NCBI GenBank assembly: GCA_036339995.1
Contig: JAYYZW010000119.1
Coordinates: 691 to 64,690 of the forward strand
Direction: 5' to 3'
Source: Pseudomonadota bacterium
GTDB taxonomy: Bacteria; Pseudomonadota; Gammaproteobacteria; Ga0077536
Length of the DNA stretch: 64,000 nucleotides
Both the position numbers and the translations under genes were made by a program. The notes beneath the pieces are model-generated. The model was not told the DNA's origin, searched no databases, and saw nothing but the letters and a program-made list of their open reading frames with translations. Below are positions 3,787 to 57,945 of the stretch, one piece after another. Each line of letters starts with the position of its first letter. The first letter of the stretch is position 1.

Positions 3787-6346
<2,560 letters not shown>

Positions 6347-8065: not shown

Positions 8066-8776
8066 ATGAGCGACGCCATCGTCTATGCAGTCGTACCCGC
8101 CGCGGGCCAGGGTCTTCGCATGAGCGGCGGCATACCGAAGCAGTACCTCTTGCTCAATGGACGAAGCGTGCTCGAACAAACGCTCACAAGGCTGGCCGCA
8201 CACCCCCGAATCGAGCGGATCGTCGTCGCAATCGCGGACGGCGACCTGCGCTTTGAAGCGCTCAGCGATCGGCTGCCGAACAAAGTGGTGGTGGTTCGGG
8301 GCGGGCTCGAGCGCTGCCACTCGGTTCTCGCCGGACTCGAATGGCTTAGCAGTTGCGTGCCGCCCGAGGCCTGGGTGATGGTGCACGATGCAGCGCGACC
8401 GTGCCTGCGTGCGAGCGACATCGATCGTATGATCCGCGATCTATCCGACACGACGACTGGGGGCATCCTCGCAGCGCCGGTGCGTGATACGCTCAAGCGC
8501 TGCGACGGAGATGATCAGATTACCGAGACCGTCGACCGCCGGGCAATGTGGCACGCGCTCACACCACAGATGTTTCAATTGCAGGCGTTGCGCATGGCGA
8601 TCGAATCCGCGCTGGCCGAAGGAATCATCGTGGCCGACGAAGCGCAGGCAATGGAGCGGCAGGGGGTGCGGCCGAAAGTGATCCCCGGGCACAGCGACAA
8701 CGTCAAGATCACCCACCCGGAAGACCTCGAACTGGCCGCATTGATCATGCAGGCGCAAGGGAAACCACGGGCATGA
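8066..8776 (+). CDS. ispD: 2-C-methyl-D-erythritol 4-phosphate cytidylyltransferase
   Basis: 236 aa, IspD-like (VPAAGQGLRM...). Conserved eno-ftsB-ispD-ispF gene order. Confidence 0.9.
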   Translation: MSDAIVYAVVPAAGQGLRMSGGIPKQYLLLNGRSVLEQTLTRLAAHPRIERIVVAIADGDLRFEALSDRLPNKVVVVRGGLERCHSVLAGLEWLSSCVPPEAWVMVHDAARPCLRASDIDRMIRDLSDTTTGGILAAPVRDTLKRCDGDDQITETVDRRAMWHALTPQMFQLQALRMAIESALAEGIIVADEAQAMERQGVRPKVIPGHSDNVKITHPEDLELAALIMQAQGKPRA

Positions 8777-9246
8777 GGATAGGACAGGGATACGACGCAC
8801 ACCGCTTCGGCCAAGGGGATCACATCATTCTGGGCGGCGTTGAAATCCCATTCGACAAGGGTCTCGCGGCGCACTCGGACGGCGATGTTCTACTGCATGC
8901 GATCTGTGACGCGCTTCTTGGTGCGGTTGCGCTAGGAGATATCGGCAGCCACTTTCCCGACTCCGATCCTGGGCTAAAGGACGTCAGCAGCCGGGATCTC
9001 CTGCGACGCGTAACGGAACTTCTGCGGGAGGCCGGCTACGCGCTCTGCAACATCGACGCCACCGTTATTGCGGAGCAGCCGCGCATCTCGCCCTTCGTCC
9101 GTGCGATGCGGGAGAATATCGCGGCGGATACGGGGCTGGCGATCGACGCCATCAGTATCAAGGCGACGACGACCGAGCGCATGGGTTTCACGGGGCGCGG
9201 TGAGGGTATCGCGGCTTCCGCCGTGTGCATGGTGCAAGCAGTTTAG
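8773..9246 (+). CDS. ispF: 2-C-methyl-D-erythritol 2,4-cyclodiphosphate synthase
   Basis: Internal ATG at 8773 (MRIGQGYDAHRF...) within ORF 8548..9246. ATGA overlap with the ispD stop. 157 aa, typical of IspF. Confidence 0.9.
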   Translation: MRIGQGYDAHRFGQGDHIILGGVEIPFDKGLAAHSDGDVLLHAICDALLGAVALGDIGSHFPDSDPGLKDVSSRDLLRRVTELLREAGYALCNIDATVIAEQPRISPFVRAMRENIAADTGLAIDAISIKATTTERMGFTGRGEGIAASAVCMVQAV

Positions 9247-9308
9247 CCCGCATATTTCATGAAGGCGCCTGGTTTCCTGGAGGAAACTCTGCGCGAGTCA
9301 GGCCGTTC

Positions 9309-9845
9309 TTAATTCTGTTTTCGCCGCAGGAGTACGTACAGCGCGCCAGAGCCGCCGTCGTTGCGCGGTGCCGAGGTAAAGGCGCGCACACTGCCATGCT
9401 GGCGTAGCCAGCGGCCTACCTTGGGCTTGAGTACCGGGTTCTTTCCGGGTGAACTCAAGCCTTTCCCGTGGATGACACGCACACAGGCGAAGCGCTGCCG
9501 GTTCGCGTGTACGAGAAACGCCACGAGTCGTTCCTTGGCTTCGGGCACCGTCATCCCGTGGAGGTCGAGTTCATCCTGTACGGCATATCGGCCGCGTCTG
9601 AGTTTGCGCAGCACGCTGCGCTGCAGACCGGGACGGTGAAATTCGGTGACCTCACCGCTGTCGGCGGAATCCCAGTCGAAATCACCGCGATCAAGGTCGC
9701 GCATGACGGCCGCTGCATCACTTTCGGAGTGACGCGGTAGCGGCGGCGGCCGCGGACGGTCCAGTGCGACCGTGTCGTGTTCGAGTCTCCTTACCTTGCC
9801 GAAGAGCTTCTGGAAGGAATCGAGTTCCGAATCATCCCGCGCCAC
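9309..9845 (-). CDS. smrB: Smr-domain endonuclease, SmrB-like (ribosome-collision mRNA nuclease family)
   Basis: 178 aa. Smr domain (LDLHGMTVPEA...VIHGKG). N-terminal DSFQKLF region resembles E. coli SmrB/YfcN. Confidence 0.6.
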   Translation of the reverse strand: MARDDSELDSFQKLFGKVRRLEHDTVALDRPRPPPLPRHSESDAAAVMRDLDRGDFDWDSADSGEVTEFHRPGLQRSVLRKLRRGRYAVQDELDLHGMTVPEAKERLVAFLVHANRQRFACVRVIHGKGLSSPGKNPVLKPKVGRWLRQHGSVRAFTSAPRNDGGSGALYVLLRRKQN

Positions 9846-9899
9846 GATATCGTCTCTCCTCGTAGTAATTTTTAGATCGGTCGGCGTGCCGCGACGAGG

Positions 9900-12800
9900 T
9901 CAACTACCGGAAACCCAGCGCCTTGCGTTGTTGAACAAAGCCATCCACGGACTTTCCTCATCGCCCCATGACGGTGGACACCACGAATACTGCTTGCTCA
10001 AGAACCCCCGTTCCGGATGCGGCATCATGATGGTGATCCTGCCGTCGTCGGTGGTGAGGCCAGTGACCCCGCGCGGCGATCCATTGGGATTAAAGGGATA
10101 GGTCTCGGTGCATTGTCCGCGGTTATCGACGAAGCGCAAACACACGCCGCGTTCGTCGTCCGGCGCGCCGGGGGGCCATAGTGCGCGGCCTTCGCCATGG
10201 GCGACGATAATGGGCGCGGACAGGCCTTCCAGGCCCGCGGTCAAAATCGAGTTCGATCGGATCACTTCGGCCATGACGAGGCGCGCTTCGAACTGTTCGG
10301 AGGTGTTGCGCTCGAATGACGGCCAGTGCGTGGCGCCTGGAATGAGGTCTCGAAGCTCGCTCAGCATCTGGCAGCCGTTGCAAACCCCAAGCGTAAACGT
10401 ATCCGGCCGAGTGAAAAAAGCTTCAAACACGTCGCGCGCGCGCCTATTCAGGCGGATGGTTCCAGCCCACCCGCGTCCCGCTCCCAGAACGTCACCGTAG
10501 GAGAATCCACCGCAGACCGCGAGACCGACGATACCGTTCAGTGATTCCCTGCCGTCGATGATATCGGTCATGTGTACGTCGACTGCATCGAAGCCGGCGC
10601 GGTCGAAGGCCGCGGCCATTTCAATGTGTCCGTTCACGCCCTGCTCACGCAGCACAGCGACCCGTGGGCGCGCGCCCGTTGTGGCGGCAACGGAAACGCA
10701 GTGATCACTGAAGTTTGTTCGCGGAAGCCTGATCGCAAGCCCTGGATCATCGCGATCGAGAATGACGGCGAGTTCCTGATCGGCACACTCGGGGTTATCG
10801 CGCAGGCGCTGTATCGCATGCGTCGTCGACGAATAAATGGCCAGCAACGCGTTCATATCCGCCTCGATTACCCGTTTCCCTCGGTGACCTAGCTTGAGCA
10901 TTCCATTGTCAACAGGCCGTCCGATCACGTGAACGCAGTCGCCAAGGCCAGTCGACTCCGCGAAAAAGGATTCGACGCGGTCGCGATCGGCGGCCGGAAT
11001 TTGGATGACCGCGCCGAGTTCTTCGGCGAACAAGGCGGTCAGCGGATCATTGCCGAGCGCAGTCAGATCGATATCCAGTCCATGCCTGGCGGCGAACGCC
11101 ATTTCGGCGAGCGTAACGGCAAGTCCACCGTCCGATCGATCGTGATAGGCCAGCAGATGACCGCCATCGTTCAGCGCCTGCACAGCCCGGAATAAATCTG
11201 CAAGGTCGCGAGCCTCCTCGCAGTCGGGAGGATCGCCGCCCGGCATGCCGTAACATTGCGCCAAGATCGATCCGCCCACTCGATTGCGTCCGCGGCCCAG
11301 GTCAACGAGCAGCAACACGGTGTCTTCATCGCGCGAGAGTTCGGGGGTCATGCTCTGGCGCACGTCTGTGACCGGCGCGAACGCGGACACGATCAGCGAA
11401 ACGGGCGCCACCGTTTGCCACGTTTCGCCGTCGACATCCCAAGCTGAGCGCATAGACATTGAATCTTTGCCAACCGGAATGTTGATACCCAGTGCGGGAC
11501 AGAACTCCAGGCCGATCGCGCGTACCATGTCATAAAGTCGGGCGTCCTCTCCCGGATGTCCCGCCGGGCACATCCAGTTAGCCGAAAGCACGACATCGGC
11601 CAGCTGTTTGATCCGCGCCGCCGCGATATTGGTGAGGGCCTCACCCACGGCGAGGCGGGCGGACGCGGGTCCGTCGATCAAGGCCACAGGCGTGCGTTCG
11701 CCCAGCGCCATAGCCTCACCGACATGGTTCGAAAAACCACTCGATGTCACCGCGCAATCGGCCACCGGTACCTGCCATGGCCCGACCATTTGGTCCCGAA
11801 CGGCGAGTCCGCCGACCGTACGATCGCCGATCGTGATAAGGAAACGTTTGTCGCCGACGCCGGGAAAGGAGAATACGCGCTCCAGCGCTTCTTGGAGATC
11901 GACCCGCGAGAGGTCTGGCGAAGCCAGGTCCGTCTTAACGTGTTCCACGTCACGCTGCATGCGCGGGGGTTTGCCGAATATGACATCCATCGGTATATCG
12001 ATGGCCGGCGTTCCCGTGAGGCTGTCACTTACGACGATCTGTTCGCGTTCGGTCGCCGTACCGACGACCGCATAAGGACAGCGTTCGCGTTTACAGATTT
12101 CGGCGATCTGTTCAACGCTGTCGGCGCTGACGGCGAGGACGTAACGCTCCTGGGCCTCGTTACACCAGATCTCGTGCGGCGACATGCCTGGCTCCGCGTT
12201 GGGAATGTCGCGCAATTCAATGATGCCGCCACGATCGCTGTCGTGCAGTATTTCCGGAATCGCGTTGGATAAACCGCCCGCGCCGACGTCGTGTATCGTT
12301 AGCAGGGGGTTGGCGTCGCCGGCGGCCCAGCACGTATCGATCACCTGCTGGCAGCGGCGCTGCATCTCGGCGTTATCCCGTTGTACCGACGCGAAGTCGA
12401 GGTCCGCATCAATGGCACCCGAGCCGAGCGATGATGCGGCGCCGCCCCCCAGGCCGATGAGCATCGCGGGCCCGCCGAGTACAAGGATCCGGGCACCGAC
12501 GGGAATCGCCTGCTTGACGACATGTCCGGGCCGGATGTTGCCTAGGCCCCCGGCCAGCATGATGGGTTTGTCATAACCGCGTACTGTACGTGTGGTATCA
12601 CCACGCGACTCGAAGCTGCGGAAATAACCGGTCAACGCCGGCCGACCGAATTCATTATTGAAAGAAGCAGCGCCGATGGGCCCTTCGAGCATGACATCGA
12701 GCGCTGTCGCAAGTCGGGGATTGAACGGCCGTTCGGTTTCCCAGGGTCGTGCGGCGCCGGGCAGGCGCAGGTGCGACACTGTGAAACCGGTCAAGCCCGC

Positions 12801-13784
12801 CTTTGGCTTCGCACCCCGTCCGGTCGCGCCCTCGTCGCGGATTTCGCCGCCGGCGCCGGTCGACGCGCCCGGATAGGGAGATATCGCCGTCGGGTGATTA
12901 TGCGTTTCGACCTTCATCACGATCGACACGTCTTCGGGATGATGCGCATAAATGAGGTTCGCACCGTTCACACAAAACCGCTCTGCGCGATAGCCCCGAC
13001 TGACCGCGGCGTTGTCTCGATAGGCGGACAAGACGTCGTTGGGATGGCGGGCAAAGGTGTTTCGAATCATGTCGAACAGGCTGAGCGGTTCCTCACGTCC
13101 GTCTACCAACCATGATGCGTTGAAGATCTTATGGCGGCAGTGCTCAGAATTGGCCTGCGCGAACATCATCAGTTCGACGTCCGTCGGATCACGTTCGAGT
13201 TCGCGATACCGACCGTCGAGATAATCGATCTCTTCGTCCGCCAGCGCGAGGCCGAGCTCCGTATTGGCGGCTATGAGTGCATCGCGTCCTTTTGCCAGCA
13301 GCGGGACACGGACTAGCTGACCAGGCCGTGCCGCCGAATTGAGCAGATCGAGCTCGGCGCACGATCGCATGACGGTTTCCGTCATGCGATCGTGGAGAAA
13401 CGGCAGCAAGCCTTCGATGCCCTTCCGGTCGAGGCCGGTGACGAACCAGGCGGTCACACGCTCGATACGCTCGAGTCCAATCACCCCGCAATTCACGCAG
13501 ATGTCGGCCGCCTTGCTAGACCAGGGAGATATCGTGCCGATGCGCGGCGTAACCAGAATGTCGGGCTCTGTGGCTGGATTGTCGCCGGCGTCGTCGCGCG
13601 CGCGGGTAAGCCGTTTCAGCAGGTCCCGCTCGGCATTCGTCGCACCGTCGGCGTTGTGGAACCAGGCGGCGAACAAATGCTCCGCGTCGATCGTCTCCAA
13701 GGCCGGCGCTACGTTTACGCAATCGGCCTTGAGTTTTTCGATTCGAAAGGGCGAAAGGGCGGAACCGCCCCGGAGTAACAACAT
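9900..13784 (-). CDS. purL: phosphoribosylformylglycinamidine synthase (single-chain large PurL)
   Basis: 1294 aa. N-terminus [18 protein letters not shown] parallels E. coli PurL. C-terminal glutamine amidotransferase domain present. Confidence 0.95.
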
Positions 13785-13797
13785 TTGATTTCTAACC

Positions 13798-13970
13798 CTT
13801 AGGGAATCTCTGAATAAGTCATGGTGCGTCTGAATTGTTCATAAAATTGTGCAGATCAAGGCACGAATCGCAGCCAATAGCGGGGACTATTGGCAAGGTT
13901 CGTAACGCTGAGCTGCGCGATTTTATGGGCAAGGCAGATGTGCCATGACTTATTCAAAGGTTCCTTAGGG
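13798..13970. repeat. MITE/REP-like palindromic mosaic element, copy 1 (about 173 bp)
   Basis: TIRs CTTAGGGAATCTCTGAATAAGTCATGG ... CCATGACTTATTCAAAGGTTCCTTAGGG. About 90% identical to the reverse complement of the copy at 31678..31847. Central hairpin CCAATAGcggggaCTATTGG. Confidence 0.8.
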
Positions 13971-14825
13971 TATGACTTCCACCTTCACCCAGACGTCGTA
14001 GACGTCGCTACCCTGGCGCCGCGTGCTGTAAAGCGTACCGCTCGTCGAATCGTTGAATGCCTGGGCGGCACCGCCGAATGGTATCCATTCGCCCAGCCGA
14101 CCGCTGACGGTCGTTGACAGGCCGCGTGAGTCGATCAAACCGCCGCCAGAGCGATTGAGGTTCTCGGTAAACGGCGAGATCTCAAGGTTGATCCGGTCGC
14201 CCGCAACACGCGGTAGGACGTAGAAACCTGCACCGGCATTACGATACCTGACGGACCCGAACACAGTAGCGCCATACGGCGTCCACACCACCGAGTGCTG
14301 CGGTATTGGGACGGATTTCCCCGCACTGATGAAAGCTGGCGACCCTTCAATGGCATGCACGAAATGCGTATTGTCGGCATCGTGCACGCCCTGCGTGCTG
14401 AAATTGCGATATTGAACGTGGTTATCTCTATCGCCATAGGTGATGCTCGCGCCCGGCCCACGCGCCGGCCGACCGACCCGGGCTTGAACATCGCCGCCAG
14501 TGATGCGGGCCGACAGTTCGTTTTCGCGAAGTTGCGAGTGCGCATCGATGTCCTGACGCACGGTGATGCGCAGTTGTTTCAGTTTCGCATCGAGCGCCGC
14601 GAGGACGTTCTTGAGATCGGCCAGGTTTTCGGGCGTCGTGCGGATGATCAGCTGGTCGTTCATTCCGGTCACAGTACCGCCTTCGACAACCAATGCCTGG
14701 AGAGTCGGTACAACGTCGTTCACAAGACGATGCTTGAGCGGAATGATCTCCAAGGTCATTTCGGCACTATGCACCGATGGGGCGATCGAGATAAGGGCGA
14801 TTGTTAAGATCAGGATACGGCTCAT
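13965..14825 (-). CDS. secreted hypothetical protein with secretin-N (NolW-like) short domain
   Basis: Start at internal ATG 14825 (MSRILILTIALISIAPSVHSA signal peptide) with a GGAGG RBS. N-terminal domain LEIIPLKHRLVNDVVPTLQALV...LIIRTTPENLADLKNVLAALD resembles the secretin N-terminal domain. No full secretin C-terminal domain. Stop codon TAA lies inside the repeat TIR. Confidence 0.55.
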   Translation of the reverse strand: MSRILILTIALISIAPSVHSAEMTLEIIPLKHRLVNDVVPTLQALVVEGGTVTGMNDQLIIRTTPENLADLKNVLAALDAKLKQLRITVRQDIDAHSQLRENELSARITGGDVQARVGRPARGPGASITYGDRDNHVQYRNFSTQGVHDADNTHFVHAIEGSPAFISAGKSVPIPQHSVVWTPYGATVFGSVRYRNAGAGFYVLPRVAGDRINLEISPFTENLNRSGGGLIDSRGLSTTVSGRLGEWIPFGGAAQAFNDSTSGTLYSTRRQGSDVYDVWVKVEVIP

Positions 14826-15355
14826 ATGTGCAGCCTCCGGAAATTCGTGTCGGGCACGCCACGTTCCCACATTTCCTCGATCCGGTCGACAAGCCCTGCG
14901 GCGATCCGCCTGTCGTTGAAATCCGCCGTCCCTTCGAAGCGAGCGGAAAACTGGCGATGTACGTATCCTGTGTTATCGGCAACGAGGATCGCTTCATTAA
15001 ATTGTTTGTGCTGAGGCGCTGGCGCGCGAATTTCAATGTAACTCGGCAGACGCGAACTCAGTTCCAGCACCCGGTGACCGGTAGAAATGAGCGGTCTGGA
15101 TTCAATGATGAACAGCCTTATCTGCGCAGTTCGGTTCTTCAAGGCCATATTCTTGAGGGCGTCGGCGAAGGCCTCATTATCGTAGATGGCAGGGTCTAGA
15201 TGGCGGCTGACGATGATCAGCGACTGTCTGCATTGCTGGGCCATCATCACACTGATCACGGCGAGCGATGTGTGATCGTCGAACGTCAGCGGCTCGGCCG
15301 TCCCTCCTAGGACGGCGCCTTCATAGCCGACGGCTTCATCGCGGACCTCAGACAT
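14822..15355 (-). CDS. hypothetical cytoplasmic protein
   Basis: 177 aa ORF. 8-nt overlap with the purB 3' end and ATGA overlap with the downstream secretin-N gene. No TM helix. No family recognised. Confidence 0.5.
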   Translation of the reverse strand: MSEVRDEAVGYEGAVLGGTAEPLTFDDHTSLAVISVMMAQQCRQSLIIVSRHLDPAIYDNEAFADALKNMALKNRTAQIRLFIIESRPLISTGHRVLELSSRLPSYIEIRAPAPQHKQFNEAILVADNTGYVHRQFSARFEGTADFNDRRIAAGLVDRIEEMWERGVPDTNFRRLHI

Positions 15356-16745
15356 CTTTGGCCAGCGCCGCTGCGTTGCCGGTGTAATTCGCGGGAGTCA
15401 ACGCCTTGAGCGCCCGTTTGGCGTCCGTCGTTATATCCAGCCGGTCAATGAATTTTCCTAGGCTTTCACGGTCGATCCGTTGCCCACGGGTCAGTTTTTT
15501 CAACTGCTCGTAGGAATCGCTGATCCCATGGCGGCGCATGATCGTTTGAATCGGCTCGGCCAGTACTTCCCATGCATGATCGAGGTCGTGTGCGAGGCGA
15601 TCTTTGTCGATCTCGAGTTTACCCAGACCCATGAGCAGCGATCGGTAGGCGATCACGGAGTAAGCAAGGGCACTGCCCAGATTTCGCAGCACGGTCGAAT
15701 CAGTGAGGTCGCGCTGCATTCTCGAAAGCGGTAGCTTCCGTGCAAAGTGATCGAGCAGCGCATTGGCGACGCCGAGATTACCCTCGGCGTTTTCGAAGTC
15801 GATCGGATTCACTTTATGCGGCATGGTCGAAGATCCGACTTCGTCATCGACATGGTGCTGCCTGAAATAGCCGATCGAAATATAGCTCCAGATATCGCGG
15901 CACAGGTCCATAAAAATCGTGTTCGTGCGCGCGAGAGCATCGGCGAATTCGGCGATACAGTCATGCGGTTCGATTTGGGTCGTATGTGAATTCCAGCTGA
16001 GTCCGAGGCTCAGCACGAAACGCTCGCTCAAGCGCGGCCAGTCGACATTCGGATAAGCCGCAAGGTGGGCGTTGTAGTTGCCGACGGCGCCGTTCATTTT
16101 CCCGAGCAGGGCAACTTGTTCCAGAGCATCTATCTGGCGGCGGAGGCGGACGGCGAAATTCGCCATTTCTTTGCCCATCGTCGTGGGCGACGCGGGCTGG
16201 CCGTGGGTACGCGACAGCATCGCGTCGCCGGCATGCGCAGCGCCGAGGGACGCAAGCCTGCACAGCAGTTCGTTCATGGCCGGGAGCAATACGTCGGTGC
16301 GTGCATCGCTCAGCATCATGCCGTAAGCGAGGTTGTTGATGTCCTCGCTGGTACAGGCGAAATGAATGAACGGTATGGCGGCATCGAGGGTCCGATGTTC
16401 CGCGAAACATTCGCGCAGGTAATATTCGACCGCCTTGACGTCATGGTTGGTGGTCGCTTCGATCTGCTTGATCTTTGCAGCTTCGGCCTCATCGAACGAA
16501 TGCAATAGGCCTTCGAGAATACCGCTTTTCGAGTCGTCGAATGCCGGTAGCTCCGTAATCGAGTTTTCAGCGCCCAAGGCCTGCAGCCAGCGGACTTCGA
16601 CGACGACACGATAGCGCATGAGGCCAAATTCGCTGCATATGCGGCGCAGCGGGGCCGTGTGCCTGGCGTACCGGCCGTCCACCGGCGAAACGGCGTTGAG
16701 TTCTGACAGCGGCGTTGCGTCGCCGGCGGGGGGTGTCATGGACAC
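15348..16745 (-). CDS. purB: adenylosuccinate lyase
   Basis: 465 aa with AVSPVDGRYARH... matching the PurB N-terminus. Alternative start at ATG 16739 gives an ATGA overlap with the upstream aldo-keto reductase stop. Confidence 0.9.
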   Translation of the reverse strand: MSMTPPAGDATPLSELNAVSPVDGRYARHTAPLRRICSEFGLMRYRVVVEVRWLQALGAENSITELPAFDDSKSGILEGLLHSFDEAEAAKIKQIEATTNHDVKAVEYYLRECFAEHRTLDAAIPFIHFACTSEDINNLAYGMMLSDARTDVLLPAMNELLCRLASLGAAHAGDAMLSRTHGQPASPTTMGKEMANFAVRLRRQIDALEQVALLGKMNGAVGNYNAHLAAYPNVDWPRLSERFVLSLGLSWNSHTTQIEPHDCIAEFADALARTNTIFMDLCRDIWSYISIGYFRQHHVDDEVGSSTMPHKVNPIDFENAEGNLGVANALLDHFARKLPLSRMQRDLTDSTVLRNLGSALAYSVIAYRSLLMGLGKLEIDKDRLAHDLDHAWEVLAEPIQTIMRRHGISDSYEQLKKLTRGQRIDRESLGKFIDRLDITTDAKRALKALTPANYTGNAAALAKDV

Positions 16746-30166: not shown

Positions 30167-30460
30167 TTGTCTCGTGTGCTGTATATGGCGTTCGCTATTT
30201 TCGTGGCGGTGTGCGGACTCGCGTTCCACGTACGCAACGATCAGGAAATCGTTTTAAATTATATTGCGGGCAGTCTCCAAATCGAATTGTCTATCGTCGT
30301 TGTTGGTGCTCTCGTTGCCGGCGCGATACTCGGCGTGCTTGCAATGACAGCCACCGTCCTGCGCCTCAGGCGCAATATCAGGCGTCTCTCCCGGCGAAAT
30401 GAAATCGCGAGCCGCGAGCTTTCGAGCCTGAGAGCCATTTCGCTAAACGATGGCGGCTGA
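30167..30460 (+). CDS. lapA: lipopolysaccharide assembly protein A
   Basis: TTG start with a GAAGGGAA RBS. About 97 aa, two TM helices, NDQ motif similar to E. coli LapA. The longer ORF 29954.. was rejected as an upstream extension. Confidence 0.6.
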   Translation: MSRVLYMAFAIFVAVCGLAFHVRNDQEIVLNYIAGSLQIELSIVVVGALVAGAILGVLAMTATVLRLRRNIRRLSRRNEIASRELSSLRAISLNDGG

Positions 30461-31634
30461 ATACCTTTTCGGAATCGTCGTTCTTCTGCTGCCGCTCGCG
30501 GCCGTCTCCGGTTGGTACTTCGGCCGTAGGGAAATTTCGCCCGATGCAGCGCGTAACGGCGTGTCAGGCATCTCATCAGACTATTTCCGCGGACTCAATT
30601 ACCTGCTCGACGACCGACCGGACAAGGCCATCGAGGTTTTCATCAAGGTCTTGGAGGTCGAAAGTGAAACCGTGGAAACACACCTCGCCTTGGGCAATCT
30701 GTTTCGGCGTCGCGGCGAAGTCGACCGGGCGATTCGCATTCACCAAAACCTGGTGTCGAAGCCGAGCCTGGACTTCGATCAGCGTGCGCTCGCGTTGCTC
30801 GAACTGGGTTTGGATTATATGCGTTCGGGTCTGTTGGACCGCGCTGAGAGCTTGTTCAAGGAATTGCTCGAATCCGGTGCGCACCAGCGCGATGCCATGG
30901 ACCACTTGATCGATATTTACCAGCAGGAGCAGGACTGGGACAAGGCGCTCGAATACACAGGGCGCCTCGAGAAACTGGCCAACCGCGATTTAGGTGACGT
31001 GCGCGCGCATTTTTATTGCGAGCAAGCGCAGACGCAAACCGAAGAGGGTAATATCGAGAATGCGAGCGATCTGTTGCGCCACGCGATTCGGATGGACAAG
31101 AACTGCGTGCGCGCAAGCCTCATGCAGGCGGAAATTGCGATGACCGCGGGCGCGTACGAGGCTGCGATTCGTCATCTCGAGGAAATCGAAAAACAGAACC
31201 TGGCGTTTCTGCCCGAGGCGATCAATCCGCTCGTCGAGAGCTACCGGGCCTTGGATCGTATTGCCGACCTCGTACGCTACCTTGAACGGTTAAGCACGCT
31301 TCACGCCGGGATCACTCCGGTGCTCGTACTGGCCGAAGTCATGACAGAACTGGGTGAGGTCGAGGAGGCGAAAAAGCGCATTATCGACGAACTCAAGATC
31401 CGGCCGACCGTACGGGGTATCGACCGATTGATCGATTATTCACTAACCAGCGCGGAAGGTGAAACGAAGGAGAATCTCGTACTCCTCAAGGAACTCACGG
31501 CAAGTCTCCTCGAGGAAAAGTCGAGCTACATGTGCAGAAACTGCGGATTCAAAGGACGCTCGCTCCACTGGCAGTGTCCCAGCTGTAAGCTCTGGAATTC
31601 GGTAAAACCGATCCACGGCATCGAGGGCGAATGA
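30450..31634 (+). CDS. lapB: lipopolysaccharide assembly protein B (TPR plus rubredoxin-like C-terminus)
   Basis: 394 aa. N-terminal TM helix, TPR repeats and C-terminal CRNCGF...CPSC metal-binding motif. Confidence 0.85.
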   Translation: MAAEYLFGIVVLLLPLAAVSGWYFGRREISPDAARNGVSGISSDYFRGLNYLLDDRPDKAIEVFIKVLEVESETVETHLALGNLFRRRGEVDRAIRIHQNLVSKPSLDFDQRALALLELGLDYMRSGLLDRAESLFKELLESGAHQRDAMDHLIDIYQQEQDWDKALEYTGRLEKLANRDLGDVRAHFYCEQAQTQTEEGNIENASDLLRHAIRMDKNCVRASLMQAEIAMTAGAYEAAIRHLEEIEKQNLAFLPEAINPLVESYRALDRIADLVRYLERLSTLHAGITPVLVLAEVMTELGEVEEAKKRIIDELKIRPTVRGIDRLIDYSLTSAEGETKENLVLLKELTASLLEEKSSYMCRNCGFKGRSLHWQCPSCKLWNSVKPIHGIEGE

Positions 31635-31677: not shown

Positions 31678-31847
31678 TTTAGGGAGCCCCTAAATAAGTC
31701 ATGGTACATCTGCCTTGCCCGTGAAATCGCGGAGCCTTACGTTACGAACCTTGCCAATAGTCCCCGCTATTGGCAAGGTTCGTGCCTTGATCTGCGCGAT
31801 TTCGTGAACAATTCAGACGCACGATGACTTATTCAGAGGTTCCTTAG
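31678..31847. repeat. MITE/REP-like palindromic mosaic element, copy 2 (about 170 bp)
   Basis: TIR pair ...TAAATAAGTCATGG / CGATGACTTATTCAGAGGTTCCTTAG. Perfect 17-bp central hairpin ACGAACCTTGCCAATAG-tccccg-CTATTGGCAAGGTTCGT. Right end 7 bp from the pyrF ATG. Confidence 0.8.
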
Positions 31848-31853
31848 CTTGCG

Positions 31854-32573
31854 ATGAACAGATCGCTTAAACCGGTGATCGTCGCCCTCGATTTCCCGAA
31901 TCTGGATCTAGCGCTCACACTAGCCGATCGACTCGATCCCGGCGTCTGCCGCGTCAAAATCGGCAGCGAATTATTCACGCGCGCCGGCCCGGGGTCGGTT
32001 CGCGCGCTGATCGAACGCGGCTTTGACGTCTTTCTCGATCTCAAGTTTCATGACATTCCCAACACGGTCGCGGGCGCCTGTCGCGCCGCGGCTGAATTGG
32101 GTTGCTGGATGATGAACGTGCACACTGGAGGCGGTGCCGCCATGATGCAGGCCGCGCGGGAAGCGATTCACTGCGATGATGGCCCACTACTCATCGGCGT
32201 TACGGTTCTGACCAGCATGGGCGACGCGACACTCGACGCGGTCGGCGTTCGACACTCTCCAATGGATCAGGTCTCGCGACTCGCACGGCTGGCGGCTGAG
32301 GCAGGACTCGATGGTGTGGTCTGCTCGCCGATGGAGCTCGCCGACTTGCGCGGGCAACGGGGCTTCGACTTCAAACTCGTGACCCCTGGCATCAGGCCTC
32401 TCGGTGCGGCCCGCGGCGACCAGAAACGGATCGCAACGCCCGCAGAGGCCATCACAGCCGGAGCTGATTACCTGGTCGTCGGCAGACCGCTGACAAGCTC
32501 CGAGCATCCAGAAGAGGTGCTGGCCATGATCAACGCTGAATGCGCCACCGCGGCGGATACCCGCGACCACTGA
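31854..32573 (+). CDS. pyrF: orotidine 5'-phosphate decarboxylase
   Basis: 239 aa with PyrF motifs VALDF and [11 protein letters not shown]. Confidence 0.9.
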
Positions 32574-32587
32574 TCTGTTCGATCGCC

Positions 32588-35500
32588 ATGCTTGAGCCCT
32601 CCGCGCGACCCAGCCCGCTTGACCCGCCGCGCCCGGGCGAACCCGGCGAGATCGGTCAGTGGACGCGTCTCTATGGCGCGGCGAAATCGGTCGCAATTGC
32701 CGCGGCAGCCAGCGATCAAAATGGTCCGGTGGTCATCATCGCGCCCGATACGGCGAGCGCGATCCGCTTCGAACGCGAGATCGCTTTTTTCGCCCCGGCA
32801 TTACCGCGCTATGCAATTCCCGACTGGGAGACGCTTCCATACGATCGCTTCAGTCCGTACCAGGACATCATTAGCGAACGGATCGCGACCCTGATCCGCA
32901 TGCCCTCGATCACCCACGGCGTCGTCATCATGGGGGTCAACACGGCGATGCACCGCTTTGCGCCGCGCAAATGGATGAACGCTCGCGCATTCAGTCAGAA
33001 TCCGGGTGATCAGCTGGACCGTGTCGCGTTTCTCGCGAAGCTTGACGCGGCCGGGTATCGCCGATGCGTGCAGGTGGCAGAGCACGGAGACTACGCCGTT
33101 CGCGGGGCCTTGATCGATGTTTTCCCGATGGGCGCGGATCAGCCGTTTCGCATTGATCTCTTTGACGATGAAATCGAAACGCTGCGCCGCTTCGATGTCG
33201 AGACCCAACGCTCGATTTCACACGTCGATGCCATCGAACTACTGCCGGCCCGCGAGTTCCCGCTCGACGACAGTGCGATCAGAGAATTTCGCCGTGCCTG
33301 GCGCCTCGAATTCGAGGGTCGCCCGCAAGCCTGCTCCCTGTACGAAGACGTGTCGGCCGGTCTGGCGCCGGCCGGCATCGAATACTACCTGCCTTTGTTC
33401 TTCGACGAGCTCGCGCTCGTCACGGATTACTTCCCGGGTAACGCGCTGGTAGTAATCGACGAAGGCGTGGAGGCGGCGTCGGAACGTTTTAAGCACTCGG
33501 TCCAGGAACGTTATGAAGCCCTGCGGCACGATAGCGAACGTCCGATCGTGAAACCGCCGCGCATGTTTGTAGATTTCGACATCATTCTCGCAGCGCTGGC
33601 ACCATTTTCCTGCCTGACAGTCAGTGGCATAGAACCGACGCGCGGCACACGTGCTACGGAGTTCGCTGCGCACGCACCGGTGCAGGTTCCGGTCGACGCA
33701 CGTGCTGCCGACCCGTTCGCCCTGTTGCGCGACTACACCGCGCGCGCGGATGGGCGCATCTTGTTCCTGGCCCCATCGCTCGGCCGCCGTGAGACCCTGA
33801 TGGAACTCTTTACCGCGCAGCCGTTTCGGCCTCGTCCCTTCGAAACGTGGTCGGATTTTTTGCAAGCAGACGCGCGGGTCGGGATTGCGGTGGCGCCCGC
33901 CGTTGGAGGTGTGGAAATCGAAACGCCCCGCATCAGCTTGCTGACTGAAGCGCAGTTATTCGGCGAGCGCGCCGCGCAAAGCAGACGCAGACGCCGCAGC
34001 GCCGCAGATAGCGAAGCAGTCATCAGAAACCTGACCGAGCTTCACGATGGTTCACCGGTCGTACACGAGCAGCACGGGGTCGGTCGTTTTCAAGGCCTCG
34101 AGGTATTGGACGTGGGCGGAATTACCAACGAGTTCATCAAGCTCGAGTATGCCGACGGCGACATCCTCTACCTGCCTGTCAGCGGGCTCAACCTGATCAG
34201 CCGTTACTCGGGCGTCGATCCAGACCACGCGCCTTTGCACAAACTGGGTAGCGGACAGTGGGACAAGGCGCGTCGAAAGGCCGCGGAAAAAATTCGAGAC
34301 GTGGCTGCAGAACTGCTAGAGATTAATGCCAGGCGCGCGGCGCGCAAGGGCCATGCATTTGCCGTGGATCGAGGAGCCTACACCAGCTTCGAGCAGGCTT
34401 TTCCATTCGAAGAAACGGTCGATCAAATCAGCGCCGTCGAGGCCGTGTTTGATGATATGCAGAAAGAACAGCCCATGGATCGGTTGATCTGCGGCGACGT
34501 CGGGTTTGGTAAAACCGAAGTCGCAATGCGGGCCGCGTTTGTTGCGGTTAATGATGGCTTCCAGGTCGCCATCCTCGTGCCGACGACTTTGCTCGCGCGC
34601 CAGCATTTCGAAACTTTAAAGGATCGCTTTGCAGACTGGCCGGTTCGCATCGAACAGCTTTCGCGCTTTCAAGATTCCAGGGCCGCGCGCGATGTACTCG
34701 CCGGCCTTGCCGACGGCAGGGTCGACGTCGTCGTCGGCACTCATAAATTGCTGGGGAAGGATGTCCGATTCAGGCGCATGGGCCTTTTGATAGTCGATGA
34801 AGAGCACCGCTTCGGTGTACGCCAGAAAGAGCAGATCAAGAAACTCCGCAGCGACGTCGATATTTTAACGCTCACCGCAACGCCGATCCCGCGGACTCTC
34901 AATCTCGCATTGGCCGGAACGCGCGAACTCTCGATTATTGCGACGGCACCGGCAAAACGTCTAGCAATCAAGACCTTTGTCAGGGAGTGGTCGGAGCCGC
35001 TGGTGCGCGAGGCGATTCTGCGCGAGATCGGACGCGGCGGCCAGGTGTACTTCGTGCACAACGAAGTCGGGAACATCGAAAAAATGGCGGATAAGGTGCG
35101 CGAGATCGCGCCAGAAGCGCGCGTCGCGGTAGCCCACGGTCAAATGCGGGAGCGCGCGCTGGAGCAGGTCATGCTCGATTTCTATCACGGCCGGTGCAAT
35201 GTGCTCTTGTGCACGACGATCATAGAATCCGGCATCGACGTGTCGAACGCTAACACCATGATCATCAACCGAGCGAATAAATTCGGGCTCGCGCAACTCT
35301 ACCAGCTTCGCGGTCGGGTCGGGCGGTCTCATCACCGCGCATACGCTTACCTCGTGGTCCCGCATCGCAAGGAGATGACCACTGATGCGGTCAAGCGACT
35401 GGAAGCTATTGAATCACTGGAGGAACTCGGCGTCGGCTTTTCCTTGGCTACGCATGACCTCGAGATCCGGGGCGCCGGAGAAATCCTCGGTGAGGAGCAA

Positions 35501-51651: not shown

Positions 51652-53223
51652 TTGAATATGAATGGCGCTCACGCCTTGCTAGATGCGCTGGTCGACGCCG
51701 GCGTCAATGTCTGTTTCGCCAACCCGGGCACCTCGGAGATGCATCTGGTTTCGGCCATCGGCAAAAGCGACGCCATGCGCCCGGTCCTCTGCCTGTTCGA
51801 AGGCGTCGTTTCAGGGGCGGCCGATGGCTACGCGCGCATGAGCGGAAAACCTGCGATCACCTTGCTGCATCTCGGCCCCGGATTCTCCAACAGCATGGCG
51901 AATCTGCACAACGCGCGCCGCGCGCATTCGCCGCTCGTCAACATCATCGGCGATCACGCTACCTGGCATCACAAGTACGACGCGCCGTTGACATCCGACG
52001 TACCTGCGCATGCCCGCATCCATTCGCATTGGCTCAAGGTAACGGAGTCCGCCGAGGACCTGGCCCTGGCCGGAGCCGAGGCGGTACAGGCGTCGATGGA
52101 AGGTGCGGGCAAGATCTCGACCCTCATCGTGCCGGCAAATCATGCCTGGGAGCCGGCGACGAAATCCTATGATCGCCTGCCGCCCCCGGAATTGCCGGCC
52201 GTTATTGACGCGCATGTCGATGCAGCCGCGAAGGCTTTGAAGAATGGCAGGCGAACGGCGCTGCTACTCGGCGGCCACGCCCTGCGCGATCCGTCCCTAG
52301 CGTCCGCCGGACGGATTGCGGCAGCCACCGGCGCGGCGCTGTTGTGCGAAACCTTTTCGGCCCGACTTGAGCGAGGCGCCGGGCGTGTTCCCTTGCAGCG
52401 CATTCCGTATTTTGCCGAACTGGCCAGCGAATATCTGAAGGAATTCGAACAGATGATCCTGATCGGCGCACAACGACCGGTCGCTTTTTTCGCGTATCCG
52501 GACGTCGCGAGCCTGCTCGTGACCGAAACCTGCGAAATGATCGAACTGGCCGGTGTCGATGACGACATCTCGGCCTCACTCGCCGCACTTGCAGACGCAC
52601 TCGATGCGCCGGCGAACGTCGCCGTGCAGCAACGCGTCGCATCTGTCGTGCCCGATGGCGAGCTGACTCCCGCTGCCGTCGGCGACGTCATCAACGCTCT
52701 GCTGCCCGAGCAGACGATTCTGGTTGACGAAGGGATTACCTGCGGACTGGAACTGTTCACCCGCACCGTGGGCGCGGCGCCGCACGACTGGCTCTCGATA
52801 ACAGGCGGGTCGATCGGCCATGGCCTGCCGGTCAGTTTGGGCGCGAGTATCGCCTGCCCGCAGCGCAAAGTCGTTGCGTTTCAGGCGGACGGCAGCGCTA
52901 TGTATACGGTACAGGCCCTGTGGAGCATGATGCGTGAAGAGACGGACGTTACGGTGGTGTTGATGAACAACAGCAGCTACGCCATTCTCAACATTGAGCT
53001 CACGCGACTCAAGACAGGCGAGCCCACGCCGAAGACGCTATCCATGCTCGACCTGTCAAACCCGGACATCGATTGGGTGAGCATCGCCCGGGGCATGCAA
53101 ATGCCCGCGAACCGCGCGGCGACGGTCGCAGAATTCCATCAGCAGTTTGGCGAAGCCATGCAAACGCAGGGGCCGTGCCTGATCGAGGTGAAGCTTGCGC
53201 AGCGACCGGGAGCTACTGCGTGA
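51652..53223 (+). CDS. thiamine pyrophosphate-dependent enzyme, benzoylformate decarboxylase / acetolactate synthase-like
   Basis: 523 aa. N-terminal PYR domain (FANPGTSEMH). C-terminal PP domain with a GDGS-type motif (FQADGSAMY...NNSSY). Confidence 0.8.
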   Translation: MNMNGAHALLDALVDAGVNVCFANPGTSEMHLVSAIGKSDAMRPVLCLFEGVVSGAADGYARMSGKPAITLLHLGPGFSNSMANLHNARRAHSPLVNIIGDHATWHHKYDAPLTSDVPAHARIHSHWLKVTESAEDLALAGAEAVQASMEGAGKISTLIVPANHAWEPATKSYDRLPPPELPAVIDAHVDAAAKALKNGRRTALLLGGHALRDPSLASAGRIAAATGAALLCETFSARLERGAGRVPLQRIPYFAELASEYLKEFEQMILIGAQRPVAFFAYPDVASLLVTETCEMIELAGVDDDISASLAALADALDAPANVAVQQRVASVVPDGELTPAAVGDVINALLPEQTILVDEGITCGLELFTRTVGAAPHDWLSITGGSIGHGLPVSLGASIACPQRKVVAFQADGSAMYTVQALWSMMREETDVTVVLMNNSSYAILNIELTRLKTGEPTPKTLSMLDLSNPDIDWVSIARGMQMPANRAATVAEFHQQFGEAMQTQGPCLIEVKLAQRPGATA

Positions 53224-53224
53224 G

Positions 53225-53392
53225 CTTAGGGAACCTCTGAATAAGTTACGGCACATCTGCCTTGCCCGTGAAATTGCGGAGCCTTACGTTACGAACCTTG
53301 CCAATAGTCCTCGCTATTGCCTGCGGTTCGTGCCTCGATCTGCACTGTTCATGAACAATTCAGACGCACCATGACTTATTCAGAGGTTCCTC
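53225..53392. repeat. MITE/REP-like palindromic mosaic element, copy 3 (about 168 bp)
   Basis: Same orientation as copy 2. TIRs CTTAGGGAACCTCTGAATAAGTTACGG / CCATGACTTATTCAGAGGTTCCTCA. Degenerate central hairpin. Begins 1 nt after the TPP-enzyme TGA. Its right terminus contains the TGA stop of the lipoprotein gene. Confidence 0.8.
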
Positions 53393-54110
53393 AGATTCCA
53401 GATTCCTGAGCGGCGATCCCTATTGCGTTCGTCAACAAGACCGACAAGGAATCGAATATCGTCGTGCGATGCGATTCTCTAATTGCCTGCACGCCAGAGC
53501 CGGTTTCGTATCGAGGCCGCCACACCGACTCCGTGAGCGGAGCGACCTGCCGTCCGCCCGCTCTGCCGACAACGAATTGCCTTTTCACGTCAATGGCTTC
53601 GATTGCGATGGCGGCATAGGCGAATACGCCCGTATCGAAGGCTTTCTGGAAGCCGTAACCGCGAATGTTCTGGTTGGTATGGGTGACGTAGTCTTGCGCG
53701 ATGTCCGGATAGACTACCACCACCATATCGAGGCCTTTTGCGGCGCCCGCCTGGTAAACGCGTTCGTGAATCTCACCGGTATCGCGGTAACCCCATTTGG
53801 ATTCGGCAATACCAAACGAGCTGTCGTCCCGGCGGATCCGAATCACCTCGAACCCTTTCCTGCGCAACCGGGCGCCGACTTTTTCATAGACGAGGGCGTC
53901 AGCGTCCCAGCCTTCCAGCACGGTGCTGGAGAACTTGCTTTCCATGGCTGATATCGACAGGTAACTTATGTAGGGTTGCCGGTTGACCAGCGACAGCACG
54001 CCGACCTTGGTGATCCTCGCCGCATGCTCCGCGGTCATGCGTGATTGGCTGGTATTCAGCAGGCAGCCCGTCAGCGCGGCGCAGCACAGATAGATCAAAT
54101 TTTTGATCAC
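53391..54110 (-). CDS. hypothetical lipoprotein
   Basis: GTG start at 54110 gives MIKNLIYLCCAALTGCLLN (lipobox LTGC). About 239 aa. The longer TTG-initiated ORF was rejected. Confidence 0.5.
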   Translation of the reverse strand: MIKNLIYLCCAALTGCLLNTSQSRMTAEHAARITKVGVLSLVNRQPYISYLSISAMESKFSSTVLEGWDADALVYEKVGARLRRKGFEVIRIRRDDSSFGIAESKWGYRDTGEIHERVYQAGAAKGLDMVVVVYPDIAQDYVTHTNQNIRGYGFQKAFDTGVFAYAAIAIEAIDVKRQFVVGRAGGRQVAPLTESVWRPRYETGSGVQAIRESHRTTIFDSLSVLLTNAIGIAAQESGI

Positions 54111-54127
54111 GTTCGATGCCGAAATCG

Positions 54128-54622
54128 TCAAGCCTCGTCCGCATCCCGCGTCCAGCGAAAATCGCAGTGATCCGCACCTTCCATCATTGTCTGCGTGCGT
54201 TCGAGTTTGAGATCGGAGCCTATGCCGGCAGTCATGGGCGGGTCGATGCCGCAAACCATGAGCCGCCCGAACTCCCGATCACCGAGTTTGCGAAATAGCT
54301 CCGCATACCGACAGCGCCGTACATTGAACGCCATCACGGTATCGGACTCCTCCACCGGCTCGATCTCGATGGCGTCGCCCGCGGTAAACATCGGTACGGC
54401 CTTACGCAGCTTTTCGAGGGAATTCGAGCCCTCGTTGCGGCCGATCGAGCGACCGAATTCCGTGGCGAATTCATTGACTGCTACGGAGAGCAGTTCGCGC
54501 GCCCGGTCCGGGCCGATTTCGTCTTTAAGGCGCCGGTATAAGGGCAGCAGTATTTCAGCCTGAATTTTCACTCGCTCGATGTAGGGCAGCGGATCTGAAA
54601 TCGTGTCAGCTTTCTGGTTCAT
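54128..54622 (-). CDS. L-2-amino-thiazoline-4-carboxylic acid hydrolase-like family protein
   Basis: 164 aa. Cys-containing motifs (CRYAELF, GADHCDFRW) recalled from the ATC-hydrolase family. Family assignment tentative. Confidence 0.45.
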   Translation of the reverse strand: MNQKADTISDPLPYIERVKIQAEILLPLYRRLKDEIGPDRARELLSVAVNEFATEFGRSIGRNEGSNSLEKLRKAVPMFTAGDAIEIEPVEESDTVMAFNVRRCRYAELFRKLGDREFGRLMVCGIDPPMTAGIGSDLKLERTQTMMEGADHCDFRWTRDADEA

Positions 54623-57248: not shown

Positions 57249-57758
57249 TCACCCCGTTTGGTTTCGATTTATCCACCGTCGATCGGCGAGCACCACCGAG
57301 GTTTCGATCTGACGCTCGGGGATGTTCCAGTATTCACGGAGCAAGCGTTCCTTGTCAGCATAGGATACGGGTACGAAACCATGACCTTCGTAGAAAGCGA
57401 TGGCCCAGTTCGCGGCTGCCCAGGTCCCGACCAACAACGGCTTGCTGCAAGTCGATCGAACATGCGCTAGCAGCGCACGGCCGATGCCGGCGTGCTGCCG
57501 GCTCGGCGCGACATAAGCGTGGCGAATCAAGGCGAGGTCCCCGAGAACCTGAATGCCCATTACGCCCACGATCGCGGTCGCGTCGCCGGCCAGCCAGAAT
57601 TCGACCCGTTGCGCGATTTCCCTTTCGAGTTCCTGTCTCGGCATATACGGTTCGTGCCATCGATCCGGCGGTATGACGCCCTTGTAGGCGACCGCAGCGT
57701 CGTTGATGATCCTTAATACCTCGTCAAAATCCGGTGGGCTATAAGGCCTGATTAACAT
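57249..57758 (-). CDS. GNAT family N-acetyltransferase
   Basis: 169 aa. Acetyl-CoA-binding motif RQHAGIGRALL. Confidence 0.75.
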   Translation of the reverse strand: MLIRPYSPPDFDEVLRIINDAAVAYKGVIPPDRWHEPYMPRQELEREIAQRVEFWLAGDATAIVGVMGIQVLGDLALIRHAYVAPSRQHAGIGRALLAHVRSTCSKPLLVGTWAAANWAIAFYEGHGFVPVSYADKERLLREYWNIPERQIETSVVLADRRWINRNQTG

Positions 57759-57790
57759 TTCTAACGAGCACCGTGTTACGGCTAGCCGCT

Positions 57791-57940
57791 TGTCGGACTT
57801 AGGGAGAATCTACTGCGGCGTTGGGATAGCGGTCCAGATGCGCGATGGTTCTCGTTAAATAGTCCCACTATTCGCCTCAAACCATGACACATCTGGACTC
57901 GCTCTCCCAACCGCCTCGCTACGATTCCCTAAGTCCGACA
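57791..57940. repeat. divergent/mosaic member of the same palindromic element family, copy 4 (about 150 bp)
   Basis: TIRs GTCGGACTTAGGGAGAATC / GATTCCCTAAGTCCGAC. Nested inverted repeat CCAGATG...CATCTGG. Central AATAGTcccACTATT related to the CCAATAGtccccgCTATTGG core of copies 1-3. Confidence 0.7.
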
Positions 57941-57945
57941 GGCTG

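Follow-up and report, generated by a model that had tools for sequence, protein, structure and literature searches.

The stretch of DNA analysed here, 64,000 nucleotides long and called the window throughout, carries three copies of a non-coding, nearly palindromic element, which is very probably a MITE of the IS5-group type. Such an element would have kept only its 22-bp terminal inverted repeats and would be mobilised in trans by a DDE transposase encoded elsewhere. It is placed with the IS5 group because its ends match the end consensus of these elements and because a 4-bp target of the form YTAR is duplicated around it; the putative assignment of the transposase rests on the same two features. 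Bacterial MITEs are defined as short, non-coding, multi-copy elements that have terminal repeats and a target duplication and depend on a transposase acting in trans (PMC11602168). Terminal repeats above the usual minimum of 10-15 bp, a target duplication within the range of 2-10 bp, a suitable size, the lack of coding sequence, dispersed copies and site polymorphism are all present in the family described here.

The three copies in the window

The initial annotation had described three intergenic segments, one of them inverted relative to the other two, and had read them as an unnamed, non-autonomous, palindromic family resembling MITEs. Through direct reading, alignment and BLAST, it was observed that the three segments are real, lie where they had been placed and are 87-88% identical, with copy 1 in the inverted orientation (Table 1). 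The core of that reading is supported by the number of copies, the target duplications, a filled/empty site and the lack of any Rfam match. By BLAST, the identity of copy 3 is 88.2% with copy 2 and 87.3% with copy 1 taken as its reverse complement. When the three copies are aligned, homology breaks off abruptly at both terminal repeats. The 22-bp terminal inverted repeats read GGAACCTCTGAATAAGTCATGG, and all three copies show 0-3 mismatches to this consensus. In the window, six occurrences of the terminal repeat motif were counted, as against 0.00 expected from shuffles.

Table 1. Repeat elements of the window, with their terminal repeats, hairpins, target duplications and surroundings
Feature	Position	Strand	Remarks
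MITE copy 1	13803..13964	-	162 bp; inverted relative to copies 2 and 3; from alignment and profile search
Copy 1, setting			Start of purL (9900-13784, -) on one side, stop of a secretin-like gene (13965-14870, -) on the other; Pfam
Copy 1, left target-site duplication	13799..13802		TTAG
Copy 1, right target-site duplication	13965..13968		TTAG; 13965-13967 is the TAA stop of the minus-strand gene 13965-14870
Copy 1, terminal inverted repeat	13803..13824	+	GGAATCTCTGAATAAGTCATGG; partner 13943-13964
Copy 1, second terminal inverted repeat	13943..13964	-	
Copy 1, central hairpin	13863..13903		Stem CCAATAG/CTATTGG, extended by ACGAA.../...TTCGT
MITE copy 2	31683..31843	+	161 bp; between lapB (30450-31634, +) and pyrF (31854-32573, +)
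Copy 2, left target-site duplication	31679..31682		TTAG
Copy 2, right target-site duplication	31844..31847		TTAG; ATG of pyrF 6 nt further on
Copy 2, central hairpin	31744..31783		17-nt arms, 100% complementary, 6-nt loop
MITE copy 3	53230..53390	+	161 bp; 6 nt past the stop of a thiamine-pyrophosphate enzyme gene (51652-53223, +)
Copy 3, left target-site duplication	53226..53229		TTAG
Copy 3, right target-site duplication	53391..53394		TCAG, one substitution
Empty target site	9872..9875		Single TTAG downstream of the purL stop
Second, unrelated 162-bp palindromic repeat	57785-57946		TA flanks at 57783-57784 and 57947-57948; terminal repeat about GCAGCCTGTCGGACTTAGGGA

With a length of 161-162 bp, the window copies are of the size expected of MITEs (50-800 bp). 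No ORF of 60 aa or more is confined to the element, and the terminal repeat has stop codons in two of the three frames. The G+C content of the window is about 60%, and the elements are, as judged by eye, distinctly richer in AT. The flanking genes are ordinary ones, namely purL, the secretin-like gene, lapB, pyrF and the gene of the thiamine-pyrophosphate enzyme, as identified by Pfam. To the right of copy 3, there are two overlapping ORFs, 53391-54254 (-) and 53469-53951 (+), neither with a Pfam match; the stop of the minus-strand ORF would be a TGA in the right target duplication of the copy.

A search with an nhmmer profile made from 50 members of the family found exactly three copies in the whole window and no relics. 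Sensitive blastn (word size 7) and a search with a relaxed end motif, by which a fourth copy of the IS5-type MITE was sought, likewise returned only the three. Two weak matches, at 8627-8652 and 57648-57665, were set aside, being at chance level and within coding-like sequence.

The structure of the element differs in some respects from the initial description. The terminal repeats themselves stand, while the outermost CTTAG...CTAAG, which had been taken as part of the repeat, belongs to the target side and includes the 4-bp duplication TTAG. The proposed mosaic with two non-homologous arms did not hold either; the 62-nt arms of copy 1 are 77% complementary, and the element is one long imperfect palindrome. 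On the other hand, the central hairpin of copy 2 is indeed perfect (Table 1). Each copy can also fold into one long stem-loop, as had been suggested, with folding z-scores of -7.4 to -16.1 against dinucleotide shuffles on either strand.

Copies in related genomes, target sites and age

A scan of 185,579 species-representative genomes with the end motif gave at least 99 stretches, and the copy numbers drawn from it are lower bounds. One long-read MAG, CAXXLL01, which is labelled 'Gammaproteobacteria bacterium' and is about 91% identical to the window, accounts for at least 43 of these stretches. A count of copies in related genomes had been proposed as a check; in the 8-kb blocks fetched from contigs 2 and 3 of this relative, it gave at least 47 near-full-length copies, almost all of them exactly 162 bp long. 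They are dispersed on the two multi-megabase contigs, and their flanks are unrelated. These 47 copies and the three of the window make up the 50-copy set to which the statistics below refer.

The identity of the 50 copies to their consensus is 92.6% on average and ranges from 86 to 96%. The pairwise identity has a mean of 88.6% and a maximum of 97.5%, and no two copies are identical. Judged by this divergence, the family is old; its copies stand 4-14% off the consensus, so present activity is not implied.

The 4-mers flanking the element vary from copy to copy and agree within a copy, with examples such as CTAA/CTAA, CTAG/CTAG, TTAG/TTAG, CTTA/CTTA, TTCA/TTCA and TTAT/TTAT. The search for target-site duplications, another check suggested with the initial annotation, thus revealed 4-bp direct repeats, which are perfect in 28 of the 50 copies and carry one mismatch in 18. 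The YTAR words TTAG, CTAA, TTAA and CTAG account for 73 of the 100 flanks. The element inserts at YTAR tetranucleotides, mostly TTAG, CTAA or TTAA, with duplication of 4 bp.

A filled and an empty state of one site are also available. In locus L077, a block of CAXXLL01, a 162-bp copy at 1257-1418 is flanked by CTAA/TTAA where the window has a single TTAG (Table 1), within synteny of 91% identity. From this comparison of sequences, at least one site is seen to have changed state since the two lineages split, and the single pair could reflect an excision instead of an insertion.

The same block is syntenic with positions 8612-16451 of the window. Since the identity is only about 91%, the window comes from a close relative of CAXXLL01 and not from that MAG itself. 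Copy 1 of the window is orthologous to L077 5350-5511, to which it is 93% identical; the flanks are 88-93% identical, i.e., similarly diverged. At the site of copy 2, a contig 90.3% identical to the window (L181) has a 126-bp deletion derivative at 5865-5990 with the same TTAG duplication. A short contig from SRR29001132 (L182), 99% identical to window positions 31779-32866 and probably from the same organism as the window, begins, at its positions 1-76, inside the copy 2 element. In the outgroup L183, with about 75% nucleotide identity, the lapB-pyrF spacer is 57 bp long and without the element, and the window spacer measures 54 bp after the element and one duplication are subtracted. The lapB-pyrF site is thus polymorphic, as the element is present there in the window, L181 and L182 and absent in L183. 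As orthologues of two of the three window copies exist in the relatives of about 90-91% identity, these sequence comparisons show that the family was amplified mostly before the window lineage split from them. The copies also account for contig breaks in short-read assemblies of the lineage, the start of L182 inside a copy being one such case.

Several other observations were made on the family. Besides the derivative in L181, internal-deletion derivatives (126 bp, 150 bp) that retain both terminal repeats are found at L041 2838-2963, L065 5134-5259 and L003 2468-2617. There are also subfamilies with alternative modules, in which the right inner arm is either TAAGGCTCC or C(C/G/T)GAGCTGC and the central stem is either CCATAG/CTATGG or CAATAG/CTATTG. 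The columns that distinguish them in the 50-sequence alignment are 34/130, 66/97, 74/90 and 104-117, and a few paired double changes are among the differences. The alternative modules suggest that there were several master copies or that copies recombined with one another. Furthermore, MITE copies serve as targets for other insertion sequences. An IS630-like element with a 380-aa transposase and a TA duplication lies within the central hairpin of one copy (L087 5259-6567), and an IS4-like element splits another (L039 7513 into L056 1107), where about 10 bp of MITE sequence recur on each side.

The initial annotation had counted one variant in addition to the three copies. The only other palindromic element is the one at 57785-57946, which is probably the variant that was meant, and it represents a separate, TA-flanked repeat family. 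The TA/TA flanks suggest a MITE of the IS630/mariner type. Its neighbours are both minus-strand genes, one of which (57946-59151) has a stop codon that overlaps the right TA. Members of this family are also present in CAXXLL01, at L089 2689-2859 (90% identity), at L004 762-990 (with an internal insertion of about 60 bp) and in L045 and L070. For the annotation of the window, it is useful that the IS5-type MITE and this second family account for several oversized intergenic spacers.

Relation of the ends to IS5-group transposases

It has been reported that IS5 generates 4-bp YTAR duplications (PMC5009759). In the plasmid collection, the nearest match to the MITE end is on plasmid pA81 of Achromobacter xylosoxidans, 56 bp upstream of an annotated IS5-family transposase. 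The insertion sequence on pA81 is 1199 bp long, has the ends GGAACCTCTGAACAAGTCC and GGAAGGTCTGAACAAGGCG, is flanked by a TTAA duplication and encodes a protein with DUF772 and DDE_Tnp_1. Its left end matches the MITE end at 18 of 19 positions. Similarly, in 80 metagenomic relatives of the pA81 transposase (58-93% identity), the ends are located about 70 bp upstream of the gene. The consensus drawn from 57 ends of transposase-bearing relatives is GGAAgGTCTGAACAAGTC, with CTAG, CTAA, TTAA or TTAG as flanks. The MITE end agrees with this consensus at positions 1-4, 7-12 and 14-18, which are all the strongly conserved ones, and carries minority states at the variable positions 5, 6 and 13.

The similarity of the MITE to transposase-bearing insertion sequences stops after about 18 bp, and the best of the latter differ from the MITE end at 3-4 of 21 positions. 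The exact variant of the end (C5, C6, T13 and AT at 19-20) was found on no transposase-bearing element examined. It is absent from the 80 metagenomic IS5 relatives, and no full-length insertion sequence with the exact end is present among the at least 99 genome stretches listed. A scan of viral contigs for the end gave no matches. The initial annotation had stated that the window contains no transposase, and this is borne out for transposases of the IS5 type; a tblastn search with the pA81 transposase and E. coli InsH found none in the window or in the roughly 0.75 Mb of fetched loci (99 loci). The ORFs beside every solo end are housekeeping genes or belong to nested IS630-like or IS4-like insertions. 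It is proposed that a transposase of the DDE_Tnp_1 plus DUF772 type, encoded elsewhere, would recognise the 22-bp terminal repeats and would move the element in trans.

The 20-bp end GGAAYCTYTGAATAAGTCAT is not confined to this lineage. In other uncultured MAGs, it also bounds palindromic elements of 110-200 bp with TTAA, CTAG or TTAG duplications, the hosts being Polarisedimenticolaceae, Sedimenticola, Lysobacterales, Thiotrichaceae, Nitrospirota, Dehalococcoidia, Acidobacteriaceae and Ca. Spongiihabitans MAGs. The cores of these elements are unrelated or weakly related to the window family, with at best 74% identity over about 100 nt. By their sequences, they are sister families that share a transposase specificity and not copies of the window element. 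The sharing of the end across taxa points to a widespread specificity of IS5-group transposases. Some of the names, such as Ca. Spongiihabitans, and the isolate labels in UUID style may indicate a sponge or marine origin. In another gammaproteobacterial MAG, a minimal element of 58 bp (L083 1055-1112) consists of little beyond two inverted IS5-type ends.

A bolder and rather improbable reading would take the end GGAACCTCTGAATAAGTCAT as the mark of an orphan super-family of IS5-type MITEs. Such a super-family would have unrelated cores, would extend over at least four phyla of uncultured and possibly sponge- or sediment-associated bacteria, and would have a partner that is rare or lost (none among the at least 99 occurrences listed). 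In the present gammaproteobacterial lineage, its members would additionally be under orientation-dependent selection as operon-internal RNA hairpins. The presence of the same end in MITEs of several phyla without a matching full-length insertion sequence, together with the modest orientation bias described below, could merit a dedicated survey.

Stop codons, transcripts and other explanations

For the statistics on stop codons and orientation, genes were called by a codon-usage heuristic made for this analysis. According to these calls, the stop (TAA or TAG) of a neighbouring gene lies inside the duplicated target in 19 of the 50 copies, and in five further copies, an ORF reaches its stop 11-15 nt inside the terminal repeat. 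About half of the copies are at the stop codon of a gene, which remains intact because the duplication of the target restores its stop. A likely, though putative, reason for this association is that stop codons supply many accessible YTAR sites in a genome of about 60% G+C. The YTAR preference would in this way land the transposon exactly on stop codons, and with the stop restored by the duplication, the insertion is nearly harmless. For gene annotation, it follows that the elements supply or abut the stops of about half of their neighbouring genes.

It was also observed that 35 of the 48 classifiable copies lie between co-directional genes and that the next gene is often predicted to start only 6-30 nt away. 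Given the co-directional neighbours and the close starts, many copies are presumably transcribed within operons. An element between co-transcribed genes would be part of the mRNA, in which it would form a long hairpin. The two strands are not equal in this respect; one folds with a mean of -84.5 kcal/mol and the other with -64.9, and the asymmetry is seen in 49 of the 50 copies because G:U wobbles close the arms on one strand. The better-folding strand is the plus strand for copy 1 and the minus strand for copies 2 and 3, with a gain of about 20 kcal/mol.

Of these 35 copies with co-directional neighbours, 25 have the weaker-folding strand as the sense strand (25:10, binomial p=0.017). With respect to local GC skew, the orientation shows no bias (28:22), which gives no support to a replication-strand bias as the source. 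The orientation bias fits a mild selection against very stable hairpins in transcripts. In mechanistic terms, the excess of the weaker hairpin on the sense strand would reflect mild selection on side effects at the RNA level and not a dedicated function.

The alternative that survives best, doubtful as it is, holds that the transposon relic has additionally been recruited as a functional RNA. As an operon-internal hairpin, it would set mRNA processing, stability or polarity and would persist for this reason. Operon-internal hairpins of ERIC and Correia/NEMIS elements are said to have such effects on mRNA processing, stability or polarity. The very stable predicted hairpins, with z-scores of -7 to -16, are in line with this proposal, as are the consistent folding asymmetry of the strands, the tight intergenic placement, the bias with respect to transcription and not to GC skew, and the retention of copies at orthologous sites over about 10% divergence. 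However, the orientation statistic is a single modest p-value obtained with heuristic gene calls, and both orientations and all gene contexts occur among the copies. The covariation is weak; in the 50-sequence alignment, 7 of 62 pairs have any double change against a shuffle mean of 5.6, and mutations mostly just break pairs. Furthermore, the element contains no motif resembling a promoter or an intrinsic terminator and has no match to an Rfam family. In the Rfam search proposed with the initial annotation, the whole window gave no matches at gathering thresholds; the only weak match, to CRISPR-DR51, scored 16.8 bits against a threshold of 45 (E=5.3), which is at chance level.

Some narrower suggestions were also rejected. 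The G:U asymmetry was dropped as evidence for selection at the RNA level, since in strict palindromic register the consensus has seven G:U against five A:C pairs, the direction being unclear, and the covariation is barely above that of shuffles. A promoter or terminator carried as cargo was dismissed for want of consensus matches in the element. Similarly, the AGAGG in the terminal repeat was considered as a Shine-Dalgarno cargo, and it lies 14 nt from the pyrF ATG, which is too far.

The initial annotation had also called the elements REP-like. Elements of the REP/REPIN type are moved by a RAYT (IS200/IS605-like) single-strand transposase, and like them, the present repeats are intergenic, palindromic, multi-copy and non-coding. 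The insertion of a REP/REPIN is not known to yield a target duplication. The present family, in contrast, has AT-rich, transposon-type terminal repeats of 22 bp that are IS5-like and a 4-bp duplication that varies among copies, and its unit is uniformly 162 bp long and not made of paired GC-rich hairpins of about 20-40 bp. The label is thus contradicted, and this origin is highly improbable.

It is just as hard to believe that the copies belong to a named family such as ERIC/IRU, Correia/NEMIS or RPE, even though their size range and long-hairpin architecture are alike. The ends are IS5-like (GGAACCTCTGAATAAG) and the duplication is a 4-bp YTAR. Correia elements have a TA duplication, and their ends begin with TATAGTGGATTAA. 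Searches of the plasmid and phage collections gave no match to the element, the terminal-repeat sequence was not found in a literature search, and the host is an uncultured gammaproteobacterium of about 60% G+C. A local segmental duplication or gene conversion of immobile copies, which the three copies within the window itself might suggest, is next to impossible in view of the at least 47 dispersed CAXXLL01 copies with unrelated flanks, the homology that ends exactly at the terminal repeats, the target duplications of individual copies and the filled/empty site.

The reading as an IS5-group-type MITE can finally be set beside the known systems. IS5-group insertion sequences, such as IS5 of E. 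coli and the one on pA81, have the same end pattern, GGAAnnTCTGAAyAAGTC, and the same 4-bp duplication with a preference for YTAR, and their insertions are likewise biased to non-coding DNA. They differ in being about 1.2 kb long with a DDE_Tnp_1 plus DUF772 transposase, whereas the MITE measures 162 bp and has no transposase gene.

Other bacterial MITEs, including MITEAba12 of Acinetobacter, the IS5-family-related MITE of Porphyromonas gingivalis and the QMITEs of Coxiella, have the same general architecture, are mostly intergenic and can fold into hairpins. Their sequences and host lineages differ, and the window element is distinguished by being, over its whole length, one long imperfect palindrome. 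The target duplication is 9 bp in MITEAba12. In QMITE2 of Coxiella it is 7-9 bp, as against the 4-bp YTAR of the window family.

The ERIC/IRU and Correia (NEMIS) elements are similar in their size of about 100-170 bp, in their placement between co-transcribed genes and in the long RNA hairpins into which they fold. Effects on mRNA that depend on the orientation have been reported for these elements. There is no evident sequence relationship to the window element, and the ends and the target duplication appear to differ. Nothing in the window family departs from known transposon biology; the element appears to be unnamed, and its kind is well known.
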